Source: a bacterium (GTDB lineage Bacteria; Patescibacteriota; Minisyncoccia; Phycocordibacterales; Phycocordibacteraceae). From it: a stretch of 64,000 bases of DNA. Under the pieces are notes generated by a model. That model saw only the letters and a list, made by a program, of their open reading frames with translations. It was not told the origin of the DNA and made no database searches. Numbering within the stretch: position 1 is the stretch's first letter; each line of letters begins with the position of its first letter. Location of the stretch: the NCBI GenBank assembly GCA_023267755.1, contig JAHFMR010000004.1, positions 8,535 to 72,534 on the forward strand. Reading direction: 5' to 3'. Below are positions 650-38,058 of the stretch, one piece after another. The translations under genes were made by a program, and so were the position numbers.

Positions 650-973
650 TCAGTGGACGGCAGGTTCCGTCAATCCCTTCGGATCAACACCAACCTCGCG
701 CAGCTTTGCGGCGAGCTCATTTTTAGCATCCATCAATAGTTCAAACTCGTTAAGTCTCTCGTCCGAGACTCCGCTTTCTCGAGCAATATTCGCCCTAAGA
801 AGCACGAGGCGCTGTTCGGCGATGAGATATTCGTTTGTCAGGGCGTCTATTTTCTCCTCTCGCTCTTCTCTCGCCCCTACACGTGCCGCCTCCTGATAAG
901 CACCCTCTACAACAGGAGCCGGAACGGGAACCTCTTCTTCAGAGGAAGTAACTCTCGGGGGGTGTTCATTCAT
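650..973 (-). CDS. Upstream ORF in the same frame as prfB, separated from it only by UGA-AUG-CAG-UGA; its tail MDAKNELAAKLREVGVDPKGLTEPAVH resembles the RF2 N-terminal helix that normally precedes the frameshift site
   Basis: ORF track; manual translation shows the prfB body continues in-frame after two TGA codons (652..650, 643..641). Confidence 0.35.
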   Translation of the reverse strand: MNEHPPRVTSSEEEVPVPAPVVEGAYQEAARVGAREEREEKIDALTNEYLIAEQRLVLLRANIARESGVSDERLNEFELLMDAKNELAAKLREVGVDPKGLTEPAVH

Positions 974-1019
974 ATGAGACCTATGATAGTACCTTCCCCT
1001 AATAACGCAATATTCCTTT

Positions 1020-1095
1020 TGGAGCCGGGGGTCGGGATTGAACCGACGACCTAGGGTTTACGATACCCTCGCTCTACCAACTGAGCTACCCCGGC
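1020..1095 (-). tRNA. tRNA-Thr (anticodon CGT), CCA encoded
   Basis: Reverse complement folds as GCCGGGG-UA-GCUC..GAGC-G-AGGGU-AUCGUAA-ACCCU-AGGUC-GUCGG-UUCAAUC-CCGAC-CCCCGGC-U-CCA. Confidence 0.85.
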
Positions 1096-1243
1096 GAGTG
1101 AGGAGATACGACTGAATGTCTTCACTCAGACGTATCCTCCGAACGAGCCAAGAGTATGGGAGTTTCCATACCCCGGCACTCTCTCTACTTCTTACCACAA
1201 GACTACGATTATATCTGCGCGCAGAACGCGCAGACCAATCGAG

Positions 1244-1316
1244 AGCCGAGAGTCGGGATTGAACCGACGACCTGCGCCTTACCATGGCGCTGCTCTACCA
1301 ACTGAGCTATCTCGGC
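1244..1316 (-). tRNA. tRNA-Thr (anticodon GGT)
   Basis: Reverse complement: GCCGAGA-UA-GCUCAGUUGGUAGAGC-A-GCGCC-AUGGUAA-GGCGC-AGGUC-GUCGG-UUCAAUC-CCGAC-UCUCGGC-U. Confidence 0.85.
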
Positions 1317-1404
1317 TTATCGCACCAACGCATAGTAGCCGAATTTTCCTATTCTTTCAATTAACATACAACACGGCCCTGTTCGGACCGTGTTGTATGA
1401 ACTG

Positions 1405-1478
1405 CGCGAGGGACGGGACTCGAACCCGCAACCTTCCGCGTGACAGGCGGATGCTCTAACCAGTTGAGCTACCCCCGC
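1405..1478 (-). tRNA. tRNA-Asp (anticodon GTC)
   Basis: Reverse complement: GCGGGGG-UA-GCUCAACUGGUUAGAGC-A-UCCGC-CUGUCAC-GCGGA-AGGUU-GCGGG-UUCGAGU-CCCGU-CCCUCGC-G. Confidence 0.85.
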
Positions 1479-1527
1479 AAAGAGGTCTCACCATCCTAGC
1501 AAATTCCCTGGAAAATGTCGTGCCGTG

Positions 1528-1601
1528 TGCTGACGGGAGGACTTGCACCTCCGACCTTAGGTTTATGAATCCTATGCTCTAACTACCTGAGCTACGCCAG
1601 C
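1528..1601 (-). tRNA. tRNA with CAT anticodon (elongator Met or Ile2-lysidine type); atypical T-loop UGCAAGU and A31:A39 mismatch
   Basis: Reverse complement: GCUGGCG-UA-GCUC-AGGUAGUUA-GAGC-A-UAGGA-UUCAUAA-ACCUA-AGGUC-GGAGG-UGCAAGU-CCUCC-CGUCAGC-A; G1-C72 paired so not initiator. Confidence 0.6.
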
Positions 1602-1711
1602 GGAGTGAGGAAACATGAATACGCGTCCTCGTGTAGGCATGTTCTCCGAACGAGCTGGCGTATGCCTACATACGCCAACAATTATATAGCCTACCTTAAG
1701 ACACTACCAAA

Positions 1712-3367
1712 CTATACCGGAAACTCAACGACGAAGGTCGATCCCTTCCCCGCCCCAGCGCTCTCGGCGCGGACAGTGCCACCATGCGCGGTAACGATAT
1801 TCTTCACGATATAGAGCCCGTAGCCGGTGGAGTGGACGTTAATTGTCTGCGAGTCTTTACCGTGTCCGCCCTCGGTGAAGAGCCGCTGCTTGTCCTCGTC
1901 GGTAATACCCATCCCCGTATCGCGCACCGTGATGATAATCTTCCCATTCCCTGCCCCGAGCGATTTATCCCGAGTGGAATTGAGGGAAGTCGAGGGGTCC
2001 TTCTTAAGTGAGACGTCAATCGTCCCCGACGGGGTGTAGTTGATGGCGTTCTCGATAAGATTGCGCAGCACATGGTCGCCTATTTCGGCCTTATCGCCGG
2101 TGAACATATAGGGCGCGCCCGCAGGGTCGGCAATCAGGTTCAGTGAGAGCCTCTTCGCAGTGGCCGTAGCTTTTTCCTTCTGCACCTTGTCTGCCACGAG
2201 CGCCGCCATATCAAACGGCTCCTTCTTATACTCTGTCGTCCCCTTCTTCTGATTCGACGCCTTGAGGATATTCATCACCGACTCCACCCCCGTGCGTGTC
2301 TCGGCGATAGCACGCTCGACAAACGGCGTGAGCTCTGGCGAGAGTGTGCCGAAGTCGCCCTCCAAGAGGGCGGCGAAGGCGCCGCTGTCTTTAGCAAGAT
2401 AGCCCTTCACTTCGTGACTGATGAAGCGGATAAGCCCCTCCTGCCGCTCATTGGTATCGGCGAGCTCCTTCGCGAGTTTTTCTATTTTCTCGCGCTGCTC
2501 CACTTCGCGAATCACACTTCCGATTAGATTGATACCGAAGATAAGCACGAAGACGAGTACGCCAGTCCTAAACAATACAAGAACGAGCGTGTCCGAAAAG
2601 ATGATTTCTCCAAAGGAGACAATCGAGAGCAAGAAGACAAGCAGCGCGGTTGAGAACACCTTGATATTAAAAAGATGATGGACCCGTATCGCATATGCTG
2701 CACCAATAACCGTGGGGAGAATAAAGATGGCGCTATACAGGATGAAGCGCGAATCATTGAAAAATGCCGGGAGGATAAGATTGAAGGTGATGATGAGCAC
2801 GAAGGTGATGAGAAGTCCCCAGGACACCGGTTTGTATACCGACTGTGCTTCCTTCGGAATTCTTTTCATCTTCTGGATAAAGATGAGTAGCCCCCCGAAG
2901 ATAAGCGCGGTGACCGTCGCGACAAAGAGAAATATGCCCGGACCATTTTCGATACCGACAACCGTCCCATTCGGTGAGAGGGCGCTCACTCGCACGAACA
3001 CAAAGGAGGTGAGGGTGAGAATCGATACGAATGCAGCCCCAGGGACAACGATGCGTTGGTACCATGAGGGGAACGTAAAGTCCGTCTTTGGGAACGCGTA
3101 CAGAAATTGGAAGAGGAAGAGGACAAACCATACCGCCACACAGATTACCAGTCGCATAATATTGAGCGCGAGGTCTGGGTTGGCCACGTGATAGAACGAG
3201 TAATTCAACAGGCTCCAGACCGTCCCCGCCATAGTGAAGAGGAAGAATGAGCGGGTGGTCGTACTCCTCGAGTCACTCATAAAAGCGGTAAAACCGAGTA
3301 CAGCCATACCGGCAGCGGCCACCCCTGTCACGATTAAATCGACATTGAAAGAGAGAATGTTTGTCAT
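1712..3367 (-). CDS. Sensor histidine kinase; N-terminal multi-TM sensor, HisKA (FISHEVKGYL) and HATPase_c (GMGITDEDKQRLF...GYGLYIVKNIV) domains
   Basis: ORF track protein motifs; start ATG overlaps the upstream stop (ATGA at 3364..3367). Confidence 0.75.
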   Translation of the reverse strand: MTNILSFNVDLIVTGVAAAGMAVLGFTAFMSDSRSTTTRSFFLFTMAGTVWSLLNYSFYHVANPDLALNIMRLVICVAVWFVLFLFQFLYAFPKTDFTFPSWYQRIVVPGAAFVSILTLTSFVFVRVSALSPNGTVVGIENGPGIFLFVATVTALIFGGLLIFIQKMKRIPKEAQSVYKPVSWGLLITFVLIITFNLILPAFFNDSRFILYSAIFILPTVIGAAYAIRVHHLFNIKVFSTALLVFLLSIVSFGEIIFSDTLVLVLFRTGVLVFVLIFGINLIGSVIREVEQREKIEKLAKELADTNERQEGLIRFISHEVKGYLAKDSGAFAALLEGDFGTLSPELTPFVERAIAETRTGVESVMNILKASNQKKGTTEYKKEPFDMAALVADKVQKEKATATAKRLSLNLIADPAGAPYMFTGDKAEIGDHVLRNLIENAINYTPSGTIDVSLKKDPSTSLNSTRDKSLGAGNGKIIITVRDTGMGITDEDKQRLFTEGGHGKDSQTINVHSTGYGLYIVKNIVTAHGGTVRAESAGAGKGSTFVVEFPV

Positions 3368-4422
3368 ATGGTCTGAATATCCGGCGCGCGTCGATACGAA
3401 CGTGCTGTCGCTGGTGATGCATAGCCGGTGCGGAAGAGCATTGCTGGCGTATCGCTCGCTTCTACGCCAAACTGCTTCCGTATCGTCGCGTTCGCCCTTC
3501 GTATTTGTTCAAAGTGCTTCGGCAATAACCCTTCCGCACTTCCCCTCTCAAGGCTTCGTGCCAAGAAGAGAATTCCCGTGACCGGATGGAAGGCGAGACC
3601 GTGGCTCGCCGCATCAAGCCACACACGCTCTATCGCTCTCCCTGCGGCAATATAGGCCGACGGACTCTCTTCGGCGATCGTAATGAGACCCATAAGCGGT
3701 GCTGATGCGTAGAGTCCAGTATTCGCCAATCGGGCCATATTCGCGAAACCAATCATGTCCGTGATGCGCGCAACGAAGTGATTATGAAGATGTCGCATAA
3801 TTAGCCGTGCGGGTAAGGGTAACTCCATCGTCTTGATAGCGAGACCTTGTTTGCCCGAGCGATTCTCCTCATCGGTCCACAAGATATCGCCGACGAATAT
3901 CTCCCGCAGTGCTGGCGTCTCGAGCGCCACCTGCTCCATAACCGCCGATGCCGCTGCAACTGCGCGAATGGCCTTTTTGTCCTCAGTGAGGAAGAGTTTT
4001 GTTCCTTTGATTGTTTCTGCTGCCGCAGAGAACGCAGCTGTTACTTCGGTGCCCAGTGGCTGCTTCTTGTACGACTTCCTATTGGTGTGCCGTTCTCGGA
4101 TAAAGGCGGCGAGCGGGTCGGCATCAACGCCCGATTCGGTACAAATAATCTCTGCTGTACAGTAGGGATCGGCCAGGTCTGGGAGGATATGCGCCTCAGC
4201 TCGCACTCCAGAAAGAGACGCTGCGAGGATAATATTCTCGATAAGCGCGCCGTGAGCGATGTAGGTGCCGCTCAATTTGAAATTGAGTATCGGATTATCG
4301 CGATGCGGATCGAGATGGACGCGAATGTTATTGCCGTGAAGTGTAAACGACCACGGCTGCGAGTTATCCCCCGAGGGAGCCCAGACGGCGGTATCGAGAA
4401 TGGCCCGAAGTGTGGCTTCCAT
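3364..4422 (-). CDS. Nitroreductase-superfamily protein with two tandem nitroreductase-like halves (SagB/Acg-like dehydrogenase)
   Basis: N-terminal WAPSGDNSQPW signature typical of the nitroreductase fold; 352 aa is about twice a single domain. Confidence 0.55.
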   Translation of the reverse strand: MEATLRAILDTAVWAPSGDNSQPWSFTLHGNNIRVHLDPHRDNPILNFKLSGTYIAHGALIENIILAASLSGVRAEAHILPDLADPYCTAEIICTESGVDADPLAAFIRERHTNRKSYKKQPLGTEVTAAFSAAAETIKGTKLFLTEDKKAIRAVAAASAVMEQVALETPALREIFVGDILWTDEENRSGKQGLAIKTMELPLPARLIMRHLHNHFVARITDMIGFANMARLANTGLYASAPLMGLITIAEESPSAYIAAGRAIERVWLDAASHGLAFHPVTGILFLARSLERGSAEGLLPKHFEQIRRANATIRKQFGVEASDTPAMLFRTGYASPATARSYRRAPDIQTI

Positions 4423-4433
4423 AGTAGCGGTGA

Positions 4434-5558
4434 TTATGCGAGACCAATCGCTTTCTTGAACATCATACGGATAGTGTCGCGCTCTGCGGTTGCTTCAGGA
4501 GTGTGATAGGTCGGGTCGAATATCGCGTCCATATGTATCTCTGACTTACCGTTTGCAAGCGGCGCTCCGAGAGCAATCCGGCGCAGACAATACGCGATAG
4601 CGACACCCGAGAGCGTCGCGGCGTCGCCGAGCTGCGGCCACGAGTAGAGCGTCTGCCCCACTTCTTTAAGCGAGAGCAACATCCGCGGGACAACGTGGTC
4701 AGCGCCGGCAATCTTGGTAGCGAGTTTAGGCAAATCAGACGGCGGGAAGGTCTTAAATTCTTCAAGCGTCAGGTCTCCAAGCGCGCCGTTGAAGAGCTGT
4801 GTCGAACGATCGAGATCGAAGCGCTCGATCTCGACGATGACTCCGTCGCCGTTGTCAGTGGCCATCACCACCGGGATCCCCTTCTCACGCGCGGCGAGCC
4901 GGAGGCGAATTTTTATCTCTAGATTGTCGGTCTCTTCGATAAGCACATCGGCTCCTGAGAGAAATTGGTCCATCGTCTCTTCAGTGACACCCGCCCCATA
5001 GACCTCTATCTCTGCGTAGGGATTCAGCTGGTAGATATATTCGCTCACGAGGTCAGTCTTCTTGCGTCCGAGGGAGAGGAAGTCGAGGCGGATGCGGTTT
5101 AAGTTCGAGGGAGAGACTTCGTCGGGATCGGCGATCTTGATGCGGCGCGCCCCGCCCATAAGCGCCGTTGTCATCGCGCCGTGACTACCCACCGAGAGGC
5201 CCGCGTACGCGACCGAGAGATTATAAAACTTTTTCTGTTCTTCCTTGGTGATGATGTTGCGATTGCGAGCAGTGCGGATCTCCTGGTGCTCTTCGTGCGG
5301 CAGGTAGTGTGCGAGTGTCTTGTTCCACGGGAAGTAAAACCACTCGCCTACCTCTTCACCGGACTTCCCTGCTGCATACTCTTCCGAGAATGCCTTTACC
5401 TCGGCGCTATGGTCCTTGATAAATTTGAAGCGCGGATTGCGGATGAGGAAAAGATCCTCGAGGAGGAGATCGTAGCGATCAACAACAGTACCAGGTTGGA
5501 GGCGATCACGAAATGCGGCAAACGATTCTTGCGTACGATCGAGTTGTTCCGGTTTCAT
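4434..5558 (-). CDS. ThiF/MoeB/HesA-family E1-like adenylyltransferase with ~110 aa N-terminal extension
   Basis: YAGLSVGSHGAMTTALMGGARRIKIADPDEVSPSNLNRI nucleotide-binding Rossmann region typical of the ThiF family. Confidence 0.6.
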   Translation of the reverse strand: MKPEQLDRTQESFAAFRDRLQPGTVVDRYDLLLEDLFLIRNPRFKFIKDHSAEVKAFSEEYAAGKSGEEVGEWFYFPWNKTLAHYLPHEEHQEIRTARNRNIITKEEQKKFYNLSVAYAGLSVGSHGAMTTALMGGARRIKIADPDEVSPSNLNRIRLDFLSLGRKKTDLVSEYIYQLNPYAEIEVYGAGVTEETMDQFLSGADVLIEETDNLEIKIRLRLAAREKGIPVVMATDNGDGVIVEIERFDLDRSTQLFNGALGDLTLEEFKTFPPSDLPKLATKIAGADHVVPRMLLSLKEVGQTLYSWPQLGDAATLSGVAIAYCLRRIALGAPLANGKSEIHMDAIFDPTYHTPEATAERDTIRMMFKKAIGLA

Positions 5559-5604
5559 ACCGAAATGGTATCACACGACACTACACTACGTGGACGTTAT
5601 TTAC

Positions 5605-7143
5605 TTAGGACGGCTTCACCACCCACTTCTGCTTGATGCCTGCGGGGAAGAATTCAGGATCACCTGATGGGCGGAATACGAGTTTGAAAAGCGGGCGTTC
5701 ATTCACGAACGTCGAGAGCTCGCGATACTCGGAGCTCCGCTCCTTGAAGGCGGCCTCGACCGCACGCGTTGCTTCCTTCTTGAAGATTTCAGACACCGAC
5801 TCGACTCCTCGCTTCTGCTCGACGTTTATTTCGAGATACTGATTTTCTTTATCATCATACTTAGTTACAATCTGGAACTTCCCGGTACAGAAACGCTGTA
5901 TCAAATCGCTCACCATCACGTCACGAAGGTACTCGGGATAGACCTGCAGACCGTAAAGCGTGGTGGCGAGGTCGGATCGCTCATACACGTAGACAAAGGG
6001 GAGCTCGTAGAGCGGCATATTAAGCTTCTTCGCCTCCTTTGCAAGGTTGATACCCGCTTCTGCAAAAATCGCCTTCAACTCGTCATAGGTGTACACACCA
6101 CCGCGATCACCCACTGCATAGCGGATAAGCGGCACGCCGCTGTAGCCGGTGAGAATGACCTCTCCGTCAGGTGCTTCGAACGAGACAAATGCCGGATTGT
6201 ACTGCGCCAGAGTCGGCGTCTTCCGCACATCGCCAAAGATACGGCCGAAGAGCTTTTTATTTTTCATCGCGAGCCGGCGCATAAGGATGGCGGTCGGCGT
6301 CTCGAACGCCATCGCGCCGATATCGGCGGTGCCATAGATGTTCAACGTATCGCGGTAGATATTCTTCATCCCGACCTTCTTTGCGAGATAGTCGCGGAAG
6401 CGCTCGGAGAATGCCTCCGCCGCGAAGAAGAGGCGCATATTAAGCTTCTTCAGATTAATCCCCTCAAACTCTGCTTCATCGAGGACGTCCTTCACGAACG
6501 GCGGGTAGCCGATGAGGATAGTCTGTTTGAATGACGGCGCGAGGTCGTGAAGCGCCTTAAGTATCTCTGCCTTGTTCACGCCCGCTGGGAGTATCGAGAC
6601 CGGGTATCCTCGTCGGCTCGCGATATCGAAGGCTCGATATGTGAGCGTCCCGCCTATCCACACGCCCATTCCGAAGCCCACAATAACGAGTGTCGGGCAG
6701 TCTGGTCCCGGCAACTGTGCTCCATTGCGCAAGAACAGCTCGACGAGCACCGAGTACTGTTCTTCCAAGTTCGAGGTGCGTTGGAAGTAGAAGGGCTTCC
6801 CAGTCGAGCCCGAGGTGGAGGAAAACACGGCCGGGCGACCGAGCGTACCGTCCCAACAGAGATCAGCAAAAGGATATTTCTTAAGATACGCTGCCTTGTT
6901 GGTTGTCGGCAGCTTCTCGAAGTCTTCACGTGTGCGGACGGTTTCCGGGTTGACACCGTGCTCCTTAAGAAAGGCTTTGTACGCGGGCACACGCTCCGCT
7001 GCGTCACGGAAGAGTGTGAGCGCGTTCTTCGTCCGCACGCGCAACCACGTATCTGAATCGCGGGTACAAACTCGATCGGCCATTCTCTGTACCGGTGCTG
7101 TCGGTAGTACAAGCGGGGCCTTCACGTTTGTCTTACTCGCCAT
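5605..7143 (-). CDS. PaaK-like adenylate-forming enzyme (phenylacetate-CoA ligase / coenzyme F390 synthetase family)
   Basis: SSTSGSTGKPFYF matches the PaaK-family AMP-binding loop; size 512 aa. Confidence 0.6.
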   Translation of the reverse strand: MASKTNVKAPLVLPTAPVQRMADRVCTRDSDTWLRVRTKNALTLFRDAAERVPAYKAFLKEHGVNPETVRTREDFEKLPTTNKAAYLKKYPFADLCWDGTLGRPAVFSSTSGSTGKPFYFQRTSNLEEQYSVLVELFLRNGAQLPGPDCPTLVIVGFGMGVWIGGTLTYRAFDIASRRGYPVSILPAGVNKAEILKALHDLAPSFKQTILIGYPPFVKDVLDEAEFEGINLKKLNMRLFFAAEAFSERFRDYLAKKVGMKNIYRDTLNIYGTADIGAMAFETPTAILMRRLAMKNKKLFGRIFGDVRKTPTLAQYNPAFVSFEAPDGEVILTGYSGVPLIRYAVGDRGGVYTYDELKAIFAEAGINLAKEAKKLNMPLYELPFVYVYERSDLATTLYGLQVYPEYLRDVMVSDLIQRFCTGKFQIVTKYDDKENQYLEINVEQKRGVESVSEIFKKEATRAVEAAFKERSSEYRELSTFVNERPLFKLVFRPSGDPEFFPAGIKQKWVVKPS

Positions 7144-7146
7144 AGG

Positions 7147-8211
7147 TTATGCGCGGCTGCCCGCAAAACGTTTCTTCCCTATCTGATCGGCAATCGCGTC
7201 GGGTGCGCAGCGATTCTTCTTTGCGGCAGTGAGAATATCGGTGACGGTCTTGCGTACCTGGGAGACGCGACGCTCAACACGGGCGCGGTCATATCCCTTA
7301 GCATCGAGCTCGTCGACGACATTAATCAATCCCCCTCCATTGGCAACGTAGTCAGGGATGTACACGATGCCGCGCTTCGCGAGGCGCGCACTGTCTCTGG
7401 GCGTCGCGAGCTGATTGTTCGCCGCACCACAGACAATCTTCACCTTGAGCTTCGCGATTGTCTTCTCGGAGAGATCCCCGCCGAGGGCGCAGAGTGAGAG
7501 AATATCCGCCGTTTGCGTCAAGATTGCTTCAGGCGAGACGCTGCGCATACTCGGAATCTTCTTTTGTACCGCGCGGAGCCGATCCTGATTCTTCTCTGCC
7601 CCGACAATTTGCGCTCCGGCCTTATGTAGGAGCATCGCCAAGTCAGAGCCGACATTACCCAATCCCTTAATCGCAACAGTTCGCCCTTTGAACGAATCAT
7701 TCCCAAAGACAGTCTTAAGCGCCGCTCGCATCGACTCGAAAACACTCAAGGCCGCCCAGTGCGCTGGGAGACCTCCTACCGCGGGACGTCCAATGATGCT
7801 TTCTGAATGTTTCGCGAGGATCTCGATATCACGCTTTGTGAGGCCTACGTCCTCCCCAGTAAAAAAATGCCCATCGAGAAGCGCGATCCGACGCGCATAC
7901 GCAGCAAAATATTTCTCATTCTTCAACTTCTCGGCCGCAGAAGCGTTCTTCGGCGCCATCAGCACTGCTTTGCCGCCGCCGTACGGCACCTTCGCGAGTG
8001 CACACTTATAAGTCATCGCACGTGAGAGGCGGAGTGCGTCGCGCAGCGCCTCCTCTTCAGAGGCGTAATGAGCAAATCGTGTCCCGCCGACCGCTGGTCC
8101 GGCATGTGTATTATGAATAGCTATAAATCCACGGAGGTTCGTGGATCGATCGTAGAGCCGGAGGACCATCTCGTGTCCGTCAAATTCCGGCAACTGTTCT
8201 ATCTCAGTCAC
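7147..8211 (-). CDS. Glu/Leu/Phe/Val-family amino-acid dehydrogenase (leucine/phenylalanine dehydrogenase-like)
   Basis: KCALAKVPYGGGKAV catalytic lysine/GGGK motif; C-terminal NAD-binding GLGNVG; 354 aa. Confidence 0.75.
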   Translation of the reverse strand: MTEIEQLPEFDGHEMVLRLYDRSTNLRGFIAIHNTHAGPAVGGTRFAHYASEEEALRDALRLSRAMTYKCALAKVPYGGGKAVLMAPKNASAAEKLKNEKYFAAYARRIALLDGHFFTGEDVGLTKRDIEILAKHSESIIGRPAVGGLPAHWAALSVFESMRAALKTVFGNDSFKGRTVAIKGLGNVGSDLAMLLHKAGAQIVGAEKNQDRLRAVQKKIPSMRSVSPEAILTQTADILSLCALGGDLSEKTIAKLKVKIVCGAANNQLATPRDSARLAKRGIVYIPDYVANGGGLINVVDELDAKGYDRARVERRVSQVRKTVTDILTAAKKNRCAPDAIADQIGKKRFAGSRA

Positions 8212-8239
8212 GCCGAGAATATACCATAGATTTGTGCAG

Positions 8240-8986
8240 TCAGCTAGGTCTTGTGTACGCCCCGAAGCCGCTGGTCATCGTCGCCACGCCTGCGGCGTCT
8301 ATCGCATAACCCTCGAAGCCGGGTAAGCTCTCGATGAACTCGATACCCTGCTTCCCCATCGCAAAAGCGGCTGTCGCGTAGCGGTCAGCCTCGAGCACGT
8401 CGGGTCCGATGACGGTGATGCTCACGATATCGCTTAGTTTCTCTCTTGGCGCGTGCGGATTATAGATATGGTCGCCGCGAATGTACGAGCCTGAAGTCGC
8501 GATACCCCTCCCCCGTGGATACACCACCTTTACTATCTCGTGGATCTTAAAGGGATTACGGATACCGACGCTCCACTCTTCACCCGCCGCATTCTTCCCG
8601 CCCATCGCGATATCACCGCCCGCATTCACAAAATAATTCTCGATCCCCCGCTTCTTGAGAAGCGCTGCCGTGTTCAAAATCGCCCACCCCTTCACGATGC
8701 CGGAGGGATCTATCAACCCATCTGGGCGGCGGATATCGAAATACCCATCGGTTTCTTCCTTCGTCAGCTCGGCAAGTGCGAAGACCTCTTTCATTTCTTC
8801 ACTCATCTCAACTTCTTTTACTTCTCCGCGATTGATGCGTGATATCTCGCTTGTCTCTTTATAGGTACTGAAGCGCTCGTCAACCTCCTTCAGATAGGCG
8901 AAAGCCGCGTCGAGCGCTTCCTGCTCGTTTTGGCCAAGTATTTCGATCTCAATCGGCATCCCCATACTGATCCTCGTCTCTTTCAT
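8240..8986 (-). CDS. apbE: FAD:protein FMN transferase (ApbE family), short form
   Basis: FSTYKETSEISRINRG, NAGGDIAMGG and ATSGSYIRGDHIYNPH match conserved ApbE motifs. Confidence 0.7.
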   Translation of the reverse strand: MKETRISMGMPIEIEILGQNEQEALDAAFAYLKEVDERFSTYKETSEISRINRGEVKEVEMSEEMKEVFALAELTKEETDGYFDIRRPDGLIDPSGIVKGWAILNTAALLKKRGIENYFVNAGGDIAMGGKNAAGEEWSVGIRNPFKIHEIVKVVYPRGRGIATSGSYIRGDHIYNPHAPREKLSDIVSITVIGPDVLEADRYATAAFAMGKQGIEFIESLPGFEGYAIDAAGVATMTSGFGAYTRPS

Positions 8987-9049
8987 ACCTTCTATAGTAC
9001 TCCCCAGCAGGCACTTCCGTTCCCCGCTATCTCTCTATAGAATAGAGCT

Positions 9050-9610
9050 ATGAACAACCACACCGTCTCGCAGTCGGCATTTGCTCATTTCTTCACCGCC
9101 AACTCTGCCAGTGCTCCGCTCTGGCTCCTCGCCCGCCTCTATCTCGGATATCAGTTTATTATGGCCGGCTGGGAGAAAGTCATAAATCCCGTGTGGTTCG
9201 GCTCGGGCGCTGGCGCGGCGCTCCAAGGATTCATAAACGGCGCGCTCGCCAAGACGGTCTGCGCTCCGGGGGTCCCTGCGGCGGCCTGCCACCCTGATGT
9301 ACAGATGTGGTACGCCTCCTTCCTCCAGAGTGCAGTGCTTCCCCACGTCAATCTTTGGTCAAACGCGGTCGCTCTCGGAGAACTCGCAATCGGCCTCGGC
9401 CTCATTGTCGGGCTCTGCACCGGTACCGCCGCCTTCTTCGCCTTCTTTATGTCGCTCAACTTCCTCCTCTCTGGCACGGTGAGCATCAATCCCATCATCA
9501 TCGTGATCGCGATAAGCATCTTCTCGGCACGACGCGTCGCCGGCTACTGGGGTCTCGATCGTTATGCACGGCCGTTTCTAGAGAAGAGTTTCGGCTCTCG
9601 CAGTCAATAA
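9050..9610 (+). CDS. DoxX-family membrane protein
   Basis: 4-TM profile, LARLYLGYQFIMAGWEK motif typical of DoxX. Confidence 0.5.
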   Translation: MNNHTVSQSAFAHFFTANSASAPLWLLARLYLGYQFIMAGWEKVINPVWFGSGAGAALQGFINGALAKTVCAPGVPAAACHPDVQMWYASFLQSAVLPHVNLWSNAVALGELAIGLGLIVGLCTGTAAFFAFFMSLNFLLSGTVSINPIIIVIAISIFSARRVAGYWGLDRYARPFLEKSFGSRSQ

Positions 9611-9618
9611 TATTTTCC

Positions 9619-10122
9619 GTGGAAAAGTGGATTAGAAAATTACCCCGCTCGCGCGTGGACTATCCTTCGCAGAAACGCGACCAGCTGAAGTACTGGGTCT
9701 GGAAAGCGTACACTCCGCTTCACCCGCTTGTGCGCAATGCGTCATATCGCCTCGGCGTCGGGAGATTCTTATTGCGACGCGTGTTCCCAGAGATGAAACA
9801 GACCGGCCGACAGGATTTCCTCATCGGGACGCTTGACCCCGCGCATTCGGTACGCGATTTCGTCTCGTTCCTCATCGAACAAGGATTCGGAAATCACTTT
9901 GTCGCGTGGAAGGATTCTGACGAGCTTGTGAGTCTTCGGCGCACTGACGGCTTTCGACATCAATATCATATCCGCATCTTCAAAGACGGAGAGGTGCGCT
10001 GTCACTACGAGTTTACGCCGGAGTATCACCCTATTCGCCACCTTATACGCATCGGCTTTGAAGACCGTAACCAGGAGTTCAGAACGCTTATGCAAGACTG
10101 GCTCCTCCCGCTCACACGATGA
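9619..10122 (+). CDS. Hypothetical protein (start uncertain: GTG 9619 or ATG ~9793); stop overlaps the glycerate kinase start (ATGA)
   Basis: ORF track; translational coupling with the next gene; no recognisable domain. Confidence 0.3.
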   Translation: MEKWIRKLPRSRVDYPSQKRDQLKYWVWKAYTPLHPLVRNASYRLGVGRFLLRRVFPEMKQTGRQDFLIGTLDPAHSVRDFVSFLIEQGFGNHFVAWKDSDELVSLRRTDGFRHQYHIRIFKDGEVRCHYEFTPEYHPIRHLIRIGFEDRNQEFRTLMQDWLLPLTR

Positions 10123-24290: not shown

Positions 24291-24448
24291 GCAAAAGCCG
24301 CCCATAAGGGCGGCTTTTGCGTACGTGATGCACTACAAGAGTACTTCTCGTTTTCTAACTCGCTTCGCTCCTAAGAAAACAATGTCGCCGGGCGGTACTG
24401 TGCTGACCCTGATGGGGGAAGGTACTGGTTCCTGGCGTCACAACCGTG
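24291..24448. repeat. Repeat copy C (terminator hairpin 24291..24320 plus the 60-nt block shared with B), immediately 3' of the intron-containing tRNA
   Basis: gcaaaagccgccc-ataa-gggcggcttttgc; block ctgatgggggaaggtactggttcctggcgtcacaaccgtgttgc. Confidence 0.6.
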
Positions 24449-24769
24449 TTGCGGGGGCCGGAATCGAACCGGCGTCTGGAGGTTCTTCTGTACCTACTGT
24501 TTCCAGCAGGAATGGACTATCCCATAATCCTATAAGGATTCTCCCATTATAGTCTCTGAACCTTTCCTCCGCCTCAGGCGGAAGACTTGGCTGCTGATTG
24601 CCGAATCTTCTCGTTTTTCACGCATTCGCGCCCACCCTTTCGAGTCACGTTGTAGCATGAGAAGCTCTCACGGTATTCCAGCAATTTAGAGAGTTTTTCC
24701 ACTACCCGTTACCGGATAGGGTCACGTTATTCACATGAGCCTCCCGAGGTACCTCTCCTCTACCCCGCT
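24449..24769 (-). tRNA. Initiator-like tRNA-Met (anticodon CAT) interrupted by a group I intron; exons 24769..24735 and 24484..24449
   Basis: Spliced: AGCGGGG-UA-GAGG-AGAGGUA-CCUC-G-GGAGG-CUCAU|AA-CCUCC-AGAC-GCCGG-UUCGAUU-CCGGC-CCCCGCA-A; 3' half identical to E. coli tRNA-fMet (CCGGCCCCCGCAA), 1:72 mismatch. Confidence 0.75.
24485..24734 (-). ncRNA. Group I self-splicing intron (~250 nt, no ORF) in the tRNA anticodon loop after U36
   Basis: Exon ends in U, intron ends in G; IGS GUGA pairs with UCAU; core-like CUAAAUUGCUGG...CGAAAGGGUGGG (J3/4-P4) and CAGAGACUAUAAUGGGAG (J6/7-P7) motifs. Confidence 0.65.
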
Positions 24770-33566: not shown

Positions 33567-34772
33567 TTAGATAGACCCTGCGAGGTTATAGATCGGGAGC
33601 AGTATGGCAGCAAGCAAAATGGCGACCCCAAGACCGAGAAGGACAATCATAATCGGCTCGATAAGGCCGACTAGCGTGTCGACGGAGTTCGATACTTCAC
33701 GATTATAGAACTTCGCAAGCGTCGTGAGGATCTGTCCGAGTTCGCCGGTCTCTTCCCCTACCCTTGTCATCGCGACCATAATGCCAGGGATTTCTGCATG
33801 CCGGCCGAGCGCGTCGCTAATAGGTAACCCTCCCTTCACGTCTGAAGCGACCTGATGCAATACGCGCGAGTACACGACATTGTCGACAACCGAGCCGGTA
33901 ATATCTATTGCCGCGATGACCGAGACGCCTGAGAGAAGCATCGTCGAGAAGTTGTCTGCGATGCGCGAGAGATACAGTTTCTTATACAAATCACCGACAT
34001 ACGGGATCGATAATTTAATCCCGTCGAGAACGTTCTTCCCGTCCTCGGTCTTTCCGAGTTGCCACACGTACACGCCGACAGCTGCAAGTGCAATAAGTAT
34101 GAAAATACCGTACTGAATGATGAGATTGGAGAAGCCGATGACAATCTTTGTGTAGATAGGTATATCCTGCCCGGAATCGAGTAGAACTGCGCTAATCTTC
34201 GGTATCACGAGCGTAAGCATCAATGTCATCACACCAAAGAAGACAAAGATAACGAAGATTGGATAAATAAGCGCATTTTCAGCCTTGCTCGCAAGGTCGT
34301 ATGAGCGATCGAGATAATCAGCGAGATAACTGAAGGTCTGCGAAAGCTTGCCTGACTCTTCTCCTGCACGCACCATATTCACGTAGAACGTCGAGAAGAT
34401 ATCGGGGTGCCGCGAGAGCGCTTTACTGATAGGGCTTCCCCCTTGCAGGTCGTCCCCGATTGTCGAGAGGATGCCTGCGAGCTTCGCATTGCCAACCTCA
34501 GAGGCGAGAAGACGGAAAACGCGCAGCGCCGATACCTGCGCTTCAAACAGGGTCGCAATCTGACGCGAGAGGATAACTATTTCTTTATTCGATACGCGCT
34601 CAAGAAATGAGAATTTGAGTTCTAAAAATGAACGCTCCTCGGCAGACGTAATCGCTGAGATGATGAGATTACGACGTTGAAGAGCGGGGATCGCGGCTTC
34701 CTTTGAAGGGGCTTCGATAGTCCCCTCTCGCTCGTGCCCATCCTGATCAATCGCGTGATACTTAAAAAGCAT
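33567..34772 (-). CDS. pilC: Type IV pilus inner-membrane platform protein
   Basis: Two T2SS-F (GspF) domain repeats, 401 aa. Confidence 0.85.
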   Translation of the reverse strand: MLFKYHAIDQDGHEREGTIEAPSKEAAIPALQRRNLIISAITSAEERSFLELKFSFLERVSNKEIVILSRQIATLFEAQVSALRVFRLLASEVGNAKLAGILSTIGDDLQGGSPISKALSRHPDIFSTFYVNMVRAGEESGKLSQTFSYLADYLDRSYDLASKAENALIYPIFVIFVFFGVMTLMLTLVIPKISAVLLDSGQDIPIYTKIVIGFSNLIIQYGIFILIALAAVGVYVWQLGKTEDGKNVLDGIKLSIPYVGDLYKKLYLSRIADNFSTMLLSGVSVIAAIDITGSVVDNVVYSRVLHQVASDVKGGLPISDALGRHAEIPGIMVAMTRVGEETGELGQILTTLAKFYNREVSNSVDTLVGLIEPIMIVLLGLGVAILLAAILLPIYNLAGSI

Positions 34773-34775
34773 AAT

Positions 34776-35837
34776 TTAGAGGTAATGCTCGAAGGTCTTC
34801 GGATCCATCGCGTGTTCGTAGGCATGCTCGGCGGTCACTTCGCCACGTCGCACCAGCTCGGCGAGTGAACGATCCATATCGATCATCCCTTCTTGTGAAG
34901 ATGTCTGGATAACCGTGCTTATCTCGTGCGTCCGCCCATCGCGGATGAGCGTACTTACGGCATTATTGTTGATGAGGAGCTCATACGCTGGAATAAGTCC
35001 TCCTGAAACACGCGGGATAAGCCGCTGTGAAAATATACCGGCAAGACTTCCAGCGAGCTGCACTCGCACCTGTCCTTGTTGCTCAGCCGGGAACATATCG
35101 ATAATGCGATCGATAGTTTGTGCTGCATTGTTGGTGTGCAAGGTCGAGAACACGAGGTGCCCTGTCTCGGCAGCCGTCACCGCCGATGAAATCGTCTCGT
35201 AGTCGCGCATCTCTCCCACCATAATGACATCGACGTCTTCACGAAACGCGCCTTGCAGCGCCGCGTGGAAGTCGGGAGTGTCGATATGCACTTCGCGTTG
35301 GTGGATGAGCGAGCGTTTCGGCGTAAAAACGTACTCGACCGGATCTTCGATGGTGAGAATATGTTCCGCGCGCGAATCGTTAATACGATCAATCATCGTA
35401 GCGAGCGTGGTCGACTTACCCTGGCCGACCGGCCCCACGACGAGGAAGAACCCTTGCTCGCGCTGCGTGAAGACCTCGAGGATAGTGGGGAGATTGAGCT
35501 CGGTGAAGGTGCTAATTGCCCGCGGAATGAGTCGAAACGCGAGAGCAGTGGCTCCCTGCGCGTAGTAGCCGTTCACCCGGAACCGCTGATCTGCCTGGTG
35601 CGCGTACGAAAGGTCGATAGACTGATCCCTCTCAAAGGTCGCCCACCGATCCGAGGGCACGATACTCTTGAGCATTTCCTCGGTCTCAGCGGGAGTAAGC
35701 GCCGGATATTTATTAAGAGAGATAAGCGCACCCGAAACGCGGAGCATTGGCGATCCTCCGGCGAAGATATGCAGATCTGAACCGCCCTGGGAGACGACGA
35801 CGTCGAGCAGTTCTTCGAGGCGTTTGTTAGCGGCCAT
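34776..35837 (-). CDS. pilT: Twitching-motility retraction ATPase
   Basis: MAANKRLEELLDVVVSQGGSDLHI, Walker A GPVGQGKST, 350 aa. Confidence 0.85.
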   Translation of the reverse strand: MAANKRLEELLDVVVSQGGSDLHIFAGGSPMLRVSGALISLNKYPALTPAETEEMLKSIVPSDRWATFERDQSIDLSYAHQADQRFRVNGYYAQGATALAFRLIPRAISTFTELNLPTILEVFTQREQGFFLVVGPVGQGKSTTLATMIDRINDSRAEHILTIEDPVEYVFTPKRSLIHQREVHIDTPDFHAALQGAFREDVDVIMVGEMRDYETISSAVTAAETGHLVFSTLHTNNAAQTIDRIIDMFPAEQQGQVRVQLAGSLAGIFSQRLIPRVSGGLIPAYELLINNNAVSTLIRDGRTHEISTVIQTSSQEGMIDMDRSLAELVRRGEVTAEHAYEHAMDPKTFEHYL

Positions 35838-35841
35838 GACG

Positions 35842-36249
35842 CTAGCGAGTGGCGCCGGCAGCAGGCGCATTTGATTCGATGGTGCGAATAGTTTCGGCGA
35901 ACACTTCAGACGGGATAGCTGACGCTTTTATGATGTATCCATCTGCAAGGAGTTTTTTCGCCTTCTCAAGGTCTGAATCCTGGCCCTGATTTGAGAGAAT
36001 CACTATCTTTGAACCTTGGACGAGGTTTTCTTTCCGGATTGCCTCAAGCGCGCCAAAACCGCCGATACCCGGCATAATGAGGTCGAGAAGAATGACATCG
36101 GGTGCTTTTGTATCTGCTTTGTGAAGCGCGGCAAGAAGGTCTTCCCCGCTATTGAACACGCTCACATCGTGTCCAGCCGTGCGGAACTTCACTGCGTACA
36201 AATCCACAAGAAATCTATCGTCGTCAACTAGGAAAATACGATATGCCAT
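35842..36249 (-). CDS. Single-domain response regulator (CheY-like receiver) embedded in pilus cluster
   Basis: IFLVDDD...VILLDLIMPGIGGFGALEAI receiver motifs. Confidence 0.8.
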   Translation of the reverse strand: MAYRIFLVDDDRFLVDLYAVKFRTAGHDVSVFNSGEDLLAALHKADTKAPDVILLDLIMPGIGGFGALEAIRKENLVQGSKIVILSNQGQDSDLEKAKKLLADGYIIKASAIPSEVFAETIRTIESNAPAAGATR

Positions 36250-36276
36250 TACGATAAGTATACCCCATTACAGGAG

Positions 36277-38058
36277 TCAAGCCCCTTCCCCTTCGGGGAA
36301 AAGCTTTCCGCCGAGCGTATTAATCTCTTCGAATGGAATTTCTCCTTTGAGCGCCTTAATAATGGCGTCCTCGCGCATAGTCAGCATCCCGCCAGCGCGC
36401 GCCGTCGCATAAATCCGCTCCTCAACCGGCTCTTTGAGCACTACCTGCTCCAGATCCTTATTCATATGCAATAGTTCGAAAACAGCAGTGCGCCCGCGCG
36501 TTCCGCTTGGACATTCGTCAGTCGAACCTGCGCGATAAAATTCAGTAAACGCCGGCAATTCTTTGCGATATTTCTCCGGAAGATCTGCAAAATCCTGTTC
36601 GAGAAAGGCCTTAAAACTATCTTTAATCGGGAAAGGCACCCCTGCTCCTGGGCAGAGCTTCCGAACGAGGCGCTGTCCGATGACAGAAACAAGGGTTGGC
36701 GCGATAAGGAAAGGGTCGACTCCCATATCGATGAGACGCGGAATTGCTCCCGCAGCGGTATTGGTGTGTATGGTCGAGAGTACCAGGTGCCCGGTCAGAG
36801 CCGCCTGCACCGCGAGTGCGGCTGTTTCTTTATCGCGAATTTCGCCGACCATAATGATGTCCGGGTCTTGCCGCAAGATAGAGCGCAGTCCGCTCGCGAA
36901 TGTATATCCTATTTCCGGCCGCACCTGGCTCTGCGAGACGCCAGGAATCTCGTATTCGACCGGATCCTCGAGCGACACGACGTTATTCCCTTCGCGATCC
37001 GTCTCGGAGAGCATCGCAAACAGTGTTGTCGACTTTCCTGATCCGGTCGGTCCTGCAATCAAGATGATGCCGTACGGTGCTCTCATCATCTCGCGGATGC
37101 TCGCCAGCTGACCCTTTGAGAGCCCAATCGACTCAATCGTCGTTGTCATATCGGAATGATCGAGGATACGCATTTCAACCTTCTCGCCGTATTCGGTCGG
37201 GAATGTCGAAACGCGGAAATCGATACGTCGATTTTCTATCGTAACCGAGAATCGTCCGTCCTGGGGTTGCCGCTTCTCGTCGAGACGTAGTTTTGAGAGA
37301 ATCTTGATGCGCGCTACTACCGCATCGTGCACCTTCCCCGGTAACTCAAGCGAGGTGTGCAACTCACCGTCCATACGAAATCGGATACGCGTCTTTGTCG
37401 GCGTCGGTTCGATGTGAATGTCGGACGAACGCCCTTCGATAGCATAACGGAGTATCGTCGACACGATCTTTGTTACCGGCGCATCCTCTTTAAGCGTTTC
37501 GTGTCGGCCGGTCGAGAGTGTAAGTGATTCCTCATCGTTTAAGACGGGCGTCCCTCCAGCAGGGGTCGGGTGTGCCTCATCAGTAAGCTTCGCGACAGTC
37601 TCGTATTCAGAAAGCGCCTTCCCCACCTCGTCTGAAAGGTTCTGATAGGCGTCAAGCACACGATCGAAGTCCTCTTTGGTGATAAGAGTAATCTTGTAGG
37701 GCATACCAGTCTTCCCAGAGATAAATTGCAGCGCGTCAAATGCTTCGATGTTGTCTGGATCGGTGATGCCGATCTCAAGCGCGCCGTCGGTGATGCCGAG
37801 CGGGACGAAGCCGTAATGACGAGCGGAATCGATTGGGATGTAGCGGAAAACTTCTTCGTTTGCAGGAGGATCGCCCAATATGCGCGCAGGAAGCCCATAG
37901 GTCTCCCCTGCTATTCGGAGCGCATCGGAGAGCGAGATACCACGATCGGCGAGGATATCCGCGAGAGAACGATCTTTTTTAGCAAGCGACGCTTCAACAG
38001 AAGCGCGATCGCTCGCTAACAGGATCCCCTTGTCTACAAGTAATTCGAGGAGGTTCAT
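36277..38058 (-). CDS. pilB: Type IV pilus assembly ATPase (GspE/PilB family) with N-terminal T2SSE_N domains
   Basis: Walker A GPTGSGKST, Asp/His boxes, tetracysteine region; 593 aa. Confidence 0.9.
   Translation of the reverse strand: MNLLELLVDKGILLASDRASVEASLAKKDRSLADILADRGISLSDALRIAGETYGLPARILGDPPANEEVFRYIPIDSARHYGFVPLGITDGALEIGITDPDNIEAFDALQFISGKTGMPYKITLITKEDFDRVLDAYQNLSDEVGKALSEYETVAKLTDEAHPTPAGGTPVLNDEESLTLSTGRHETLKEDAPVTKIVSTILRYAIEGRSSDIHIEPTPTKTRIRFRMDGELHTSLELPGKVHDAVVARIKILSKLRLDEKRQPQDGRFSVTIENRRIDFRVSTFPTEYGEKVEMRILDHSDMTTTIESIGLSKGQLASIREMMRAPYGIILIAGPTGSGKSTTLFAMLSETDREGNNVVSLEDPVEYEIPGVSQSQVRPEIGYTFASGLRSILRQDPDIIMVGEIRDKETAALAVQAALTGHLVLSTIHTNTAAGAIPRLIDMGVDPFLIAPTLVSVIGQRLVRKLCPGAGVPFPIKDSFKAFLEQDFADLPEKYRKELPAFTEFYRAGSTDECPSGTRGRTAVFELLHMNKDLEQVVLKEPVEERIYATARAGGMLTMREDAIIKALKGEIPFEEINTLGGKLFPEGEGA

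Follow-up and report, generated by a model that had tools for sequence, protein, structure and literature searches.

What the enzymes encoded beside a membrane sensor kinase in a patescibacterial genome might make, and why they should be coupled to a sensor, is the question raised by six genes on the minus strand of contig JAHFMR010000004.1, at positions 8986 to 1712 of the 64-kb stretch analysed here (the whole of which is referred to as the window). Read in the direction of their strand, they encode an ApbE flavin transferase, an amino acid dehydrogenase, a PaaK-like ligase, a ThiF-like protein, a tandem nitroreductase and a seven-transmembrane (7TM) histidine kinase. An earlier note on this DNA had described six co-directional genes separated by tiny gaps, and the open reading frames (ORFs) do lie exactly at those positions; all six family assignments were likewise reproduced with the profile models of Pfam and NCBIfam. 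The genes from the dehydrogenase to the kinase, referred to below as the cassette, on balance probably encode a coenzyme A (CoA)-independent variant of the pathway leading from N-acyl amino acids to oxazolones (azlactones), joined to a two-component sensor.

A predicted split oxazolone synthetase

Rv1355c is TrzS, an oxazolone synthetase in which a ThiF-like ATP-dependent cyclase is fused to a flavin desaturase and in which the substitution D217A abolishes cyclisation (PMC12856293), while TyzB and TyzC are encoded by separate genes (PMC10404671) and a further synthetase, OxzB, has been described (bioRxiv 10.1101/2020.06.11.147165; reviewed in PMC12596934). TrzS, TyzBC and OxzB have all been shown biochemically to turn N-acyl Trp, Tyr or Phe into oxazolones (PMC12856293, PMC10404671, bioRxiv 10.1101/2020.06.11.147165). 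Against NF005901, the NCBIfam model of the Rv1355c family, the ThiF protein of the window (374 aa; 5558-4434, minus strand; Pfam ThiF) scored 274 bits, with its residues 21-360 aligned to model positions 35-352 and the next ThiF-type model at 79 bits, and the adjacent nitroreductase (352 aa; 4422-3364, minus strand) scored 180 bits over model positions 375-713 of 722. This collinear cover of one family model by two adjacent genes indicates a split version of the known fusion, in the same order. Both halves also matched a second model, PRK14851, in fusion order, the nitroreductase with 186 bits over model positions 330-671 of 679, and the nitroreductase further matched the Acg family (158 bits). 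An Rv1355c-family fusion protein encoded on a Rhodococcus plasmid scored 839 bits on NF005901; in BLASTP comparisons the ThiF protein was 37% identical to it over residues 47-354 (E 7e-61), and the nitroreductase aligned over its full length with the C-terminal half (E 2e-14).

The pattern of conserved residues points the same way. Across 77 cassette ThiF proteins, P77/W78, R98/N99, G120, G124, D144, D146, N152, N154, R155, K167, D211, K216, R220, E245-R246-x-D248 and P308-Q309 are invariant, and nearly all of these are common to the Rhodococcus protein, including those in regions outside the Rossmann core. D211, within the motif EETDN and present in 77/77 proteins, aligns with Rhodococcus D212 and, judged by position, probably corresponds to D217 of Mycobacterium smegmatis TrzS. 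In the nitroreductase, the conserved residues APSG-N-QPW (15-24), R111, R115, W182, G193, G261, W268 and R331 are largely common to the Rhodococcus protein, in which R486, R490 and R703 align with R111, R115 and R331. The N-terminal region of the ThiF protein had been described as a novel domain of ~110 aa; it aligns with the Rv1355c-family N-terminus from residue 21-47 onwards, with P77-W78 matching P78-W79, and is rather a trait of the family, since its aligned and conserved residues are common to Rv1355c-family proteins. The ThiF protein has a single Cys and lacks the CxxC zinc motif. A Foldseek search of its structural model against the Protein Data Bank (PDB) returned only generic ThiF, MoeB, MccB, PaaA and AclA matches, a comparison that does not discriminate because the structure of an oxazolone synthetase is not yet solved. 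Homology thus identifies the ThiF-like protein as a predicted TrzS-type ATP-dependent carboxylate-adenylating cyclase, and the nitroreductase as its predicted partner flavin desaturase.

Conservation, linkage and gene fusions

Relatives of the ligase were detected by family profile in at least 235 GTDB species genomes, and the locus counts given here and below are drawn from the best 80, each with a denominator of those loci that have enough sequence for the gene in question. Nearly all of the 80 loci carry the label of a patescibacterial lineage or of unclassified bacteria, with one labelled Gammaproteobacteria, and they span the Kaiser-, Wolfe-, Harrison-, Lipton-, Adler-, Brenner-, Wildermuth-, Nomura- and Magasanikbacteria; the best homologs are likewise patescibacterial (Kaiserbacteria, Paceibacteria), and the host of this DNA is accordingly a Kaiserbacteria-like patescibacterium. 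The core arrangement recurs in about 80 Patescibacteria species genomes at a ligase identity of 49-81%. ThiF lies on the ligase strand in 75/77 loci, the nitroreductase accompanies the ligase in 65/72 (counting a divergent subgroup confirmed by Pfam), a 7TM kinase follows the cassette in 57/62, and all four genes occur together in 56 of the 62 informative loci. Linkage survives permutation of the order, as in nitroreductase-ThiF-dehydrogenase-ligase-kinase and ligase-nitroreductase-ThiF-kinase. The homologs are therefore linked elsewhere, and the coupling of the kinase to the enzyme set, first noticed at this locus, extends across the family.

Several of the cassette genes are also naturally fused (related loci and fusion proteins are cited by their analysis numbers, L and P): dehydrogenase to ligase (P0133), ligase to ThiF (P0141), ThiF to ligase (P0218) and dehydrogenase to ligase to ThiF (P0220). 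The triple fusion, of 1242 aa, is found in two independent metagenome-assembled genomes (MAGs; L088 6001-9729 and L089 819-4547), flanked by nitroreductase, alpha/beta-hydrolase and 7TM kinase genes, and the ligase-ThiF fusion P0141 (863 aa; L090 1114-3705) is followed by genes for an alpha/beta-hydrolase, a kinase and a receiver. Comparative genomics shows that ligase, ThiF, nitroreductase and kinase are one functional unit, and from the fusions that the ligase acts next to ThiF; the fusions of these two enzymes further argue that the product of the ligase is the substrate of ThiF.

In the three loci just cited (L088, L089 and L090), the alpha/beta-hydrolase (Abhydrolase_1, ~291 aa) lies between the fusion and the 7TM kinase, and may be an extra tailoring enzyme or one that hydrolyses the product.

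A PaaK-fold ligase in place of an acyltransferase

The known systems obtain their substrate from an acyl-CoA-dependent N-acyltransferase, OxzA, TyzA or TrzA (PMC12856293, PMC10404671, bioRxiv 10.1101/2020.06.11.147165). At the corresponding point the cassette encodes a 512-aa ligase (7143-5605, minus strand) that has no Pfam match and that reached only 58.6 bits, in the N-terminal domain alone, on the PaaK model TIGR02155 (cut-off 646.3). A profile of its family nevertheless matched PaaK in the PDB (E 2.6e-10), and the AlphaFold2 model (predicted local distance difference test 85.6) is a complete PaaK-type two-domain ANL fold. Foldseek gave PaaK1 (2Y27) as the best match to this model (E 4e-24, template-modelling score 0.78, 17% identity), followed by BT_0428, the 2-hydroxyisobutyryl-CoA ligase HCL and the amide/ester ligase ClxA (9S3L, 9S45). 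The ANL motifs are invariant: T110-SGSTG-x-P117 (the P-loop), Y270-G271, G345-D346, R389-x-D391 and K504. The family is large, with 761 members at E<=1e-30 in a search of 1.84 billion cluster representatives. Compared with the phenylacetate-CoA ligases (2Y27, 2Y4N, 2Y4O), which are its best structural match and share the conserved ANL motifs, the cassette ligase is ~80 residues longer and its context lacks the paa catabolic genes.

ClxA and NatL2, enzymes of benzoxazole biosynthesis (PMC12519233, PMC9400959; PDB 9S3L, 9S45), have the same two-domain fold (Foldseek E ~1e-12), whereas their identity to the cassette ligase is 14-16%, their substrates are aminohydroxybenzoates and their pathways lead to benzoxazoles. 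In these PaaK-fold enzymes the acyl-adenylate reacts directly with an amine or hydroxyl, and no CoA takes part (PMC12519233); CoA-free N-acylation by this fold therefore has a precedent. Taken with the position of the ligase and its fusions, this precedent suggests that the enzyme would act as an ATP-dependent, CoA-independent N-acyl-amino-acid synthetase replacing OxzA, TyzA or TrzA.

The dehydrogenase and its aminotransferase substitute

The first cassette gene encodes a 354-aa dehydrogenase (8211-7147, minus strand) in which ELFV_dehydrog_N and ELFV_dehydrog both score above their Pfam cut-offs. Its best NCBIfam model, Trp_DH_ScyB, was matched with 284 bits, below the cut-off of 600, and its PDB relatives are leucine dehydrogenase (6ACF, E 1e-73), tryptophan dehydrogenase (5B37, 2e-66) and phenylalanine dehydrogenase (1e-50). 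The catalytic residues K69, K81 and D121 are invariant in the cassette dehydrogenases. In the pocket, G119 is present in 36/36 and L295 in 35/36 cassette homologs, where leucine dehydrogenase has Ala and Val; we take this combination to be the aromatic type of phenylalanine dehydrogenase, as in the mutagenesis literature on its G124 and L307. Such a pocket fits aromatic substrates, as used in all known oxazolone pathways.

A dehydrogenase is encoded upstream of the ligase in 34/73 loci. In 13/73 its slot is taken by a HisC-like class I/II aminotransferase (Pfam 160 bits, TIGR01141 223-226 bits), and L006 and L010, the closest relatives, are among these. This non-orthologous displacement identifies the first step as an interconversion of 2-oxo acid and amino acid, and the fusions and the displacement together show, by comparative genomics, that the dehydrogenase or aminotransferase feeds the ligase. 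No third substitute enzyme was found in the loci that have neither, the upstream genes there being unrelated (TrmB, M19 dipeptidase, DnaJ, ribonucleotide reductase small subunit, PAP2, short-chain dehydrogenase/reductase).

Proposed pathway and points that weigh against it

In the pathway that these observations suggest, a Leu/Phe/Trp-type dehydrogenase or a HisC-like aminotransferase would interconvert an amino acid that is bulky or aromatic and the corresponding 2-oxo acid, in either direction, so that this step may supply either the 2-oxo acid as acyl donor or the amino acid. The PaaK-fold ligase would then adenylate a carboxylic acid and transfer the acyl group to the amino group of an amino acid with no acyl-CoA involved. 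By homology to TrzS, TyzB and OxzB, the ThiF-like protein is expected to adenylate the carboxylate of the N-acyl amino acid, whereupon the amide oxygen would close the oxazolone ring, and by homology to TrzS, TyzC and OxzB the Acg-type tandem nitroreductase would desaturate the bond between C-alpha and C-beta to give a conjugated oxazolone. The 7TM kinase, often with receivers, may sense the lipophilic product or a precursor, or otherwise couple synthesis to signalling, as its linkage suggests. The amino acid would accordingly be aromatic or bulky and the product an unsaturated oxazolone.

Several points weigh against this pathway. The acyl-CoA N-acyltransferase that defines the known systems is absent from the operon, where the gene inventory is firm, so that the pathway could already branch off ahead of the ThiF step. 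A tblastn search with a putative Rhodococcus TrzA gave no match in the window or in 85 related loci, and is weak because the query, a neighbour of the Rhodococcus Rv1355c-family gene, is itself unannotated and matches no Pfam or NCBIfam model. The ligase could instead make a CoA thioester for an unlinked transferase, although the genomic context argues against a CoA thioester. Neither half of the predicted synthetase alone reaches the NF005901 cut-off of 476, which was set for a fusion of 722 residues and so lies beyond the reach of either (274 and 180, together 454); the nitroreductase is just 24% identical to the actinobacterial C-terminal half, and R540 and Q651 of M. smegmatis TrzS could not be mapped onto it. 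About 36% of loci lack a dehydrogenase or aminotransferase upstream. Characterised desaturases use O2, yet many Patescibacteria inhabit anoxic groundwater. The coupling of the kinase to a ligand is guilt by association, with no DNA-binding response regulator linked, and any acyl donor, amino acid or product named for the cassette is putative.

Alternative readings

The serious rival to the oxazolone pathway is that the ThiF and nitroreductase proteins keep the fold of the known synthetases and perform a different chemistry, on a substrate other than an N-acyl amino acid (for example a 2-oxo-acid- or ligase-derived conjugate), to give a heterocycle of another kind, a derivative of a dehydro-amino acid or a molecule resembling a cofactor, with the kinase still coupled. 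The replacement of the N-acyltransferase of all characterised systems by another first enzyme speaks for it, as does a nitroreductase that scores as well on PRK14851 as on the Rv1355c family, with which its identity is low. However, the specific likeness of the ThiF half to TrzS (274 vs <=79 bits), with its invariant residues in common, and the fusion with an acyl-adenylating ligase, which fits an N-acylated substrate, both favour the known chemistry, and a different one is considered unlikely.

Still less probable is the catabolism or fermentation of aromatic amino acids, in which the dehydrogenase would deliver an arylpyruvate to a true aryl-acid CoA ligase and the ThiF, nitroreductase and kinase genes would be separate neighbours. 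The dehydrogenase does belong to the Leu/Phe/Trp dehydrogenase family, the nearest solved structures of the ligase are phenylacetate-CoA ligases and several sources name it so, but its score on the PaaK equivalog (58.6 vs 646) and its 17% identity are low, decarboxylase, oxidoreductase and paa genes are absent from the operon, about a third of loci can do without the dehydrogenase, and the ligase is tied to ThiF by linkage (75/77 loci) and, in several proteins, by fusion.

The tailoring of a ribosomal peptide, as in thiazole/oxazole-modified microcins (TOMMs) and other peptides that are ribosomally synthesised and then modified post-translationally (RiPPs), had been raised in the earlier note from the likeness of an E1-like and a nitroreductase-like protein to TOMM C and B proteins. 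The pairing is superficially similar, and the RiPP enzymes PaaA and MccB are among the PDB folds nearest to the ThiF model, but no SagB-type or Ocin_ThiF-type model was matched at E<=0.01, the best matches being Rv1355c, PRK14851 and Acg. As the same note had observed, no YcaO or precursor peptide is visible in the operon, whose gaps of <=46 nt leave no space for an extra gene, and no conserved small ORF emerged when flanking ORFs of >=70 aa were clustered across the 80 loci. With the pair identified as halves of an Rv1355c/TrzS-type synthetase, the analogy was dropped and this reading was rejected as very improbable, whereas the broader guess of some other small-molecule tailoring system, made alongside it, appears sound. 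The same identification speaks against a classical MoeB/ThiF sulfur-carrier enzyme or a ubiquitin-like or defence E1 of the Cap2 type found in cyclic-oligonucleotide-based antiphage signalling systems (CBASS), the least probable reading of all and also rejected, for which the Pfam ThiF assignment and weak PADLOC matches (E1-E2 <=40 bits, 6A-MBL cap2_3 31 bits) can be cited but in which the ThiF/MoeB equivalogs scored far below their cut-offs (68, 52 and 40 bits vs 159, 275 and 377), the protein has its single Cys and no CxxC, no plausible ThiS/MoaD- or ubiquitin-like ORF ending in GG was found across the window, and E2, JAB and cyclase partners are absent, with the other five proteins having no PADLOC matches. 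A role in anti-phage defence was likewise considered and rejected, PADLOC having given generic E1-domain matches only (<=40 bits).

The sensor kinase and a possible signalling role

The kinase (551 aa; 3367-1712, minus strand) matched HATPase_c with 77.7 bits and HisKA_7TM with 22.6 bits, the latter below its cut-off; among four relatives looked up, HisKA_7TM is recorded as a weak match for L003 and without such a flag for L001 and L088. At least seven hydrophobic segments lie within residues 11-279, and an H-box, FISHEVKG, is found at about residue 316. The gene is translationally coupled to that of the nitroreductase by an ATGA overlap. Of the 80 loci, 16 also encode stand-alone single-domain receivers next to the cassette, and L020, for instance, has three of them in succession.

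Since the cassette is almost always encoded beside a membrane sensor kinase, it may be a signalling system. CqsA-CqsS, LuxM-LuxN and LqsA-LqsS are cases in which the gene of an autoinducer synthase lies beside that of a multi-transmembrane kinase without a large periplasmic domain, as at this locus. The products are likely to be lipophilic and acyl-type in these pairs and in the cassette alike, whereas the synthases are unrelated in sequence and the outputs of the cassette are single-domain receivers rather than a phosphorelay or LuxO-type regulators. It is tentatively proposed, as a possibility with less than even prospects, that the cassette is a self-contained chemical signalling module of the candidate phyla radiation (CPR). 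The PaaK-fold amide ligase, working without CoA, and the split oxazolone synthetase would together act as synthase of an autoinducer of the oxazolone (azlactone) type, for which the 7TM kinase would be the cognate receptor, with CheY-like receivers as further parts, and episymbionts might use the module to sense their own density or a host and possibly to steer type IV pili or attachment. If so, no dedicated small-molecule signalling system would have been described for the CPR before, and oxazolones would gain their first assigned physiological role.

Elsewhere in the window, a type IV pilus-type cluster on the minus strand (33567-38058) encodes two ATPases, one PilB-like with an MshEN domain (36277-38058) and one PilT-like (34776-35870), as well as a PilC-like platform protein (33567-34772) and a stand-alone receiver (35842-36249). 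The receiver is at most 40% identical to the receivers of the related loci; it is the only receiver domain in the window and is therefore a candidate partner of the orphan cassette kinase.

Relation to known systems and significance

With TrzA/TrzS (Rv1356c/Rv1355c; M. tuberculosis and other Actinomycetota; PMC12856293), the cassette shares a cyclase and desaturase that are homologous over their full length and kept in fusion order, an N-terminal extension, an Asp at the position taken as TrzS D217, a substrate that is probably an aromatic amino acid, and a location beside signalling genes (those of cyclic di-GMP turnover in M. tuberculosis, a histidine kinase here). It differs in encoding the cyclase and desaturase separately, in having a PaaK-fold ligase instead of TrzA, in the addition of a dehydrogenase or aminotransferase and of a dedicated 7TM kinase that may be accompanied by receivers, and in its host, a reduced-genome patescibacterium; relatives of TrzS are found mainly in Actinomycetota (PMC12856293). 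TyzA/TyzB/TyzC (Rv2336/Rv2338c/Rv2337c; PMC10404671) also has separate adjacent ThiF and nitroreductase-superfamily genes, and both TyzABC and OxzA/OxzB of Pseudoalteromonas rubra follow the same logic, in which an N-acyl aromatic amino acid undergoes ATP-dependent cyclisation and flavin desaturation. In the Tyz and Oxz systems, however, the acyl group comes from acyl-CoA through a transferase resembling acyl-homoserine-lactone synthases and FeeM, and no kinase is encoded with them; TyzB, compared by length, has 318 aa vs 374 aa for the cassette ThiF, whose N-terminal region aligns with the Rv1355c family, and relatives of OxzB have been reported only from Proteobacteria (bioRxiv 10.1101/2020.06.11.147165).

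The cyclase/desaturase core is thus already known, and the new elements are the feeding enzyme, the split architecture with its natural ligase fusions, the host taxon and a two-component sensor as fixed partner. A full-text search for literature linking Patescibacteria, Parcubacteria or the CPR to oxazolone, ThiF or nitroreductase found, among the papers listed, none on the cassette and none that connects these bacteria with oxazolone synthetases, a search for quorum sensing in the CPR gave no report of CPR signalling among the papers listed, and the published oxazolone work that was searched mentions neither a ligase replacing the acyltransferase nor an attached kinase. In public databases the CPR proteins bear generic names ('ThiF family adenylyltransferase', 'phenylacetate-CoA ligase'), and the assignments made here would correct thousands of public entries that read 'phenylacetate-CoA ligase' or 'molybdopterin/thiamine biosynthesis adenylyltransferase'.

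Patescibacteria have tiny genomes and few biosynthetic pathways. A biosynthetic cassette of four to five genes is unexpected in them, and its recovery from at least 235 species genomes, with retention in the large majority of the 80 examined, suggests an important function, plausibly an episymbiotic one. Oxazolone synthetases were discovered between 2020 and 2025, and their physiological role is described explicitly as unresolved (PMC12856293); a cyclase/desaturase pair hard-wired to a sensor kinase in a large uncultured radiation makes a signalling role directly testable. Should the ligase prove to be a CoA-free N-acyl-amino-acid synthetase, it would represent new enzymology of interest for biocatalytic amide formation, and the natural dehydrogenase-ligase-ThiF fusions offer convenient experimental constructs.

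Variant loci

An ABC exporter adjoins the cassette in 9/80 loci. A variant without dehydrogenase or kinase is found in L004 (7602-15522), from a MAG labelled Nitrospirae, and in L085, labelled Gammaproteobacteria, in the order helix-turn-helix regulator, ligase, ThiF, nitroreductase, a 323-aa protein with no family match, MacB/FtsX permease, ABC ATPase and periplasmic adaptor. These MacB-type efflux genes suggest export of the product, and the non-CPR labels may reflect mis-binning or real transfer. A conserved protein of ~312 aa with no Pfam or NCBIfam match is encoded directly after the nitroreductase in five loci (L057 12898-13830, L064 4218-5147, L076 11675-12613, L028 11710-12666 and L004 11699-12712), in three of them between nitroreductase and kinase. 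On a plasmid of Streptomyces sp. NBC_01431 (L087 5212-8126), a 622-aa ThiF family adenylyltransferase is 34% identical to the window ThiF over 94% of the length of the latter and is followed by a gene for a beta-ketoacyl-acyl-carrier-protein synthase III in place of a nitroreductase or acyltransferase, and this locus may be another undescribed variant of the ThiF-cyclase theme.

Operon layout and flanking features

From ApbE to the kinase, the intergenic distances are 28, 3, 46, 11 and -4 nt. Two ATGA overlaps had been noted, of which that at 3364/3367 is a true ATGA, whereas at 7143/7147 the sequence is TAA-CCT-ATG, a 3-nt gap. An identical 15.5-kb contig is present in ENA. No riboswitch or other RNA element was found within the operon (Rfam), and a consensus scan of 900-9700 for promoters and terminators gave counts not above those of shuffled controls and was uninformative; the assignment of the 63-bp divergent intergenic region between ApbE (-) and DoxX (+) (8987-9049) as the presumed promoter region is therefore one of position only.

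The ApbE protein itself (248 aa; 8986-8240, minus strand; Pfam ApbE, 154 bits) is short, cytoplasmic and flavin mononucleotide transferase-like, with no evident N-terminal signal sequence. It had been placed at the head of the operon, and is instead a clade-specific neighbour that travels with the divergent DoxX in Kaiserbacteria-like relatives only. Only 4/80 loci have an ApbE gene within 1.6 kb of the cassette, and elsewhere peptidase and NUDIX genes separate the two; in L006 and L010 it is 4-6 kb away, in L001 and L003 NUDIX or AdoMet_dc genes occupy its place, and in others it is absent. No flavinylation-like motif, [ST]G[AS][ST], was found in the cassette enzymes besides the P-loop of the ligase, and on these grounds ApbE was rejected as a core functional member. 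The divergent DoxX (+)/ApbE (-) pair (window 8240-9610) is kept in L006, L007, L010, L053, L080 and L084 whatever follows ApbE, which hints at a function of the flavin transferase that is tied to DoxX and not to the cassette.

Further along the window, a group I intron (Rfam RF00028, 83.9 bits; 24493-24746) interrupts the anticodon loop of a tRNA gene on the minus strand (24448-24769), identified by ARAGORN with introns allowed as tRNA-Met(CAT) with a 250-nt intron, an anticodon call that shifts if the intron ends move by 1-2 bases. Genes for DnaK/DnaJ, TrpRS/TyrRS, AspRS/LysRS and aldolase that recur beside the cassette were considered as members and rejected, their recurrence being one of synteny instead. 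Four tRNA genes (Met-CAT, Asp-GTC, Thr-GGT and Thr-CGT; 1020-1601, minus strand) lie directly downstream of the kinase on the same strand, and in other lineages the cassette is flanked instead by aminoacyl-tRNA synthetase genes of the TyrRS/TrpRS type and the class II Asp/Lys/Asn type.

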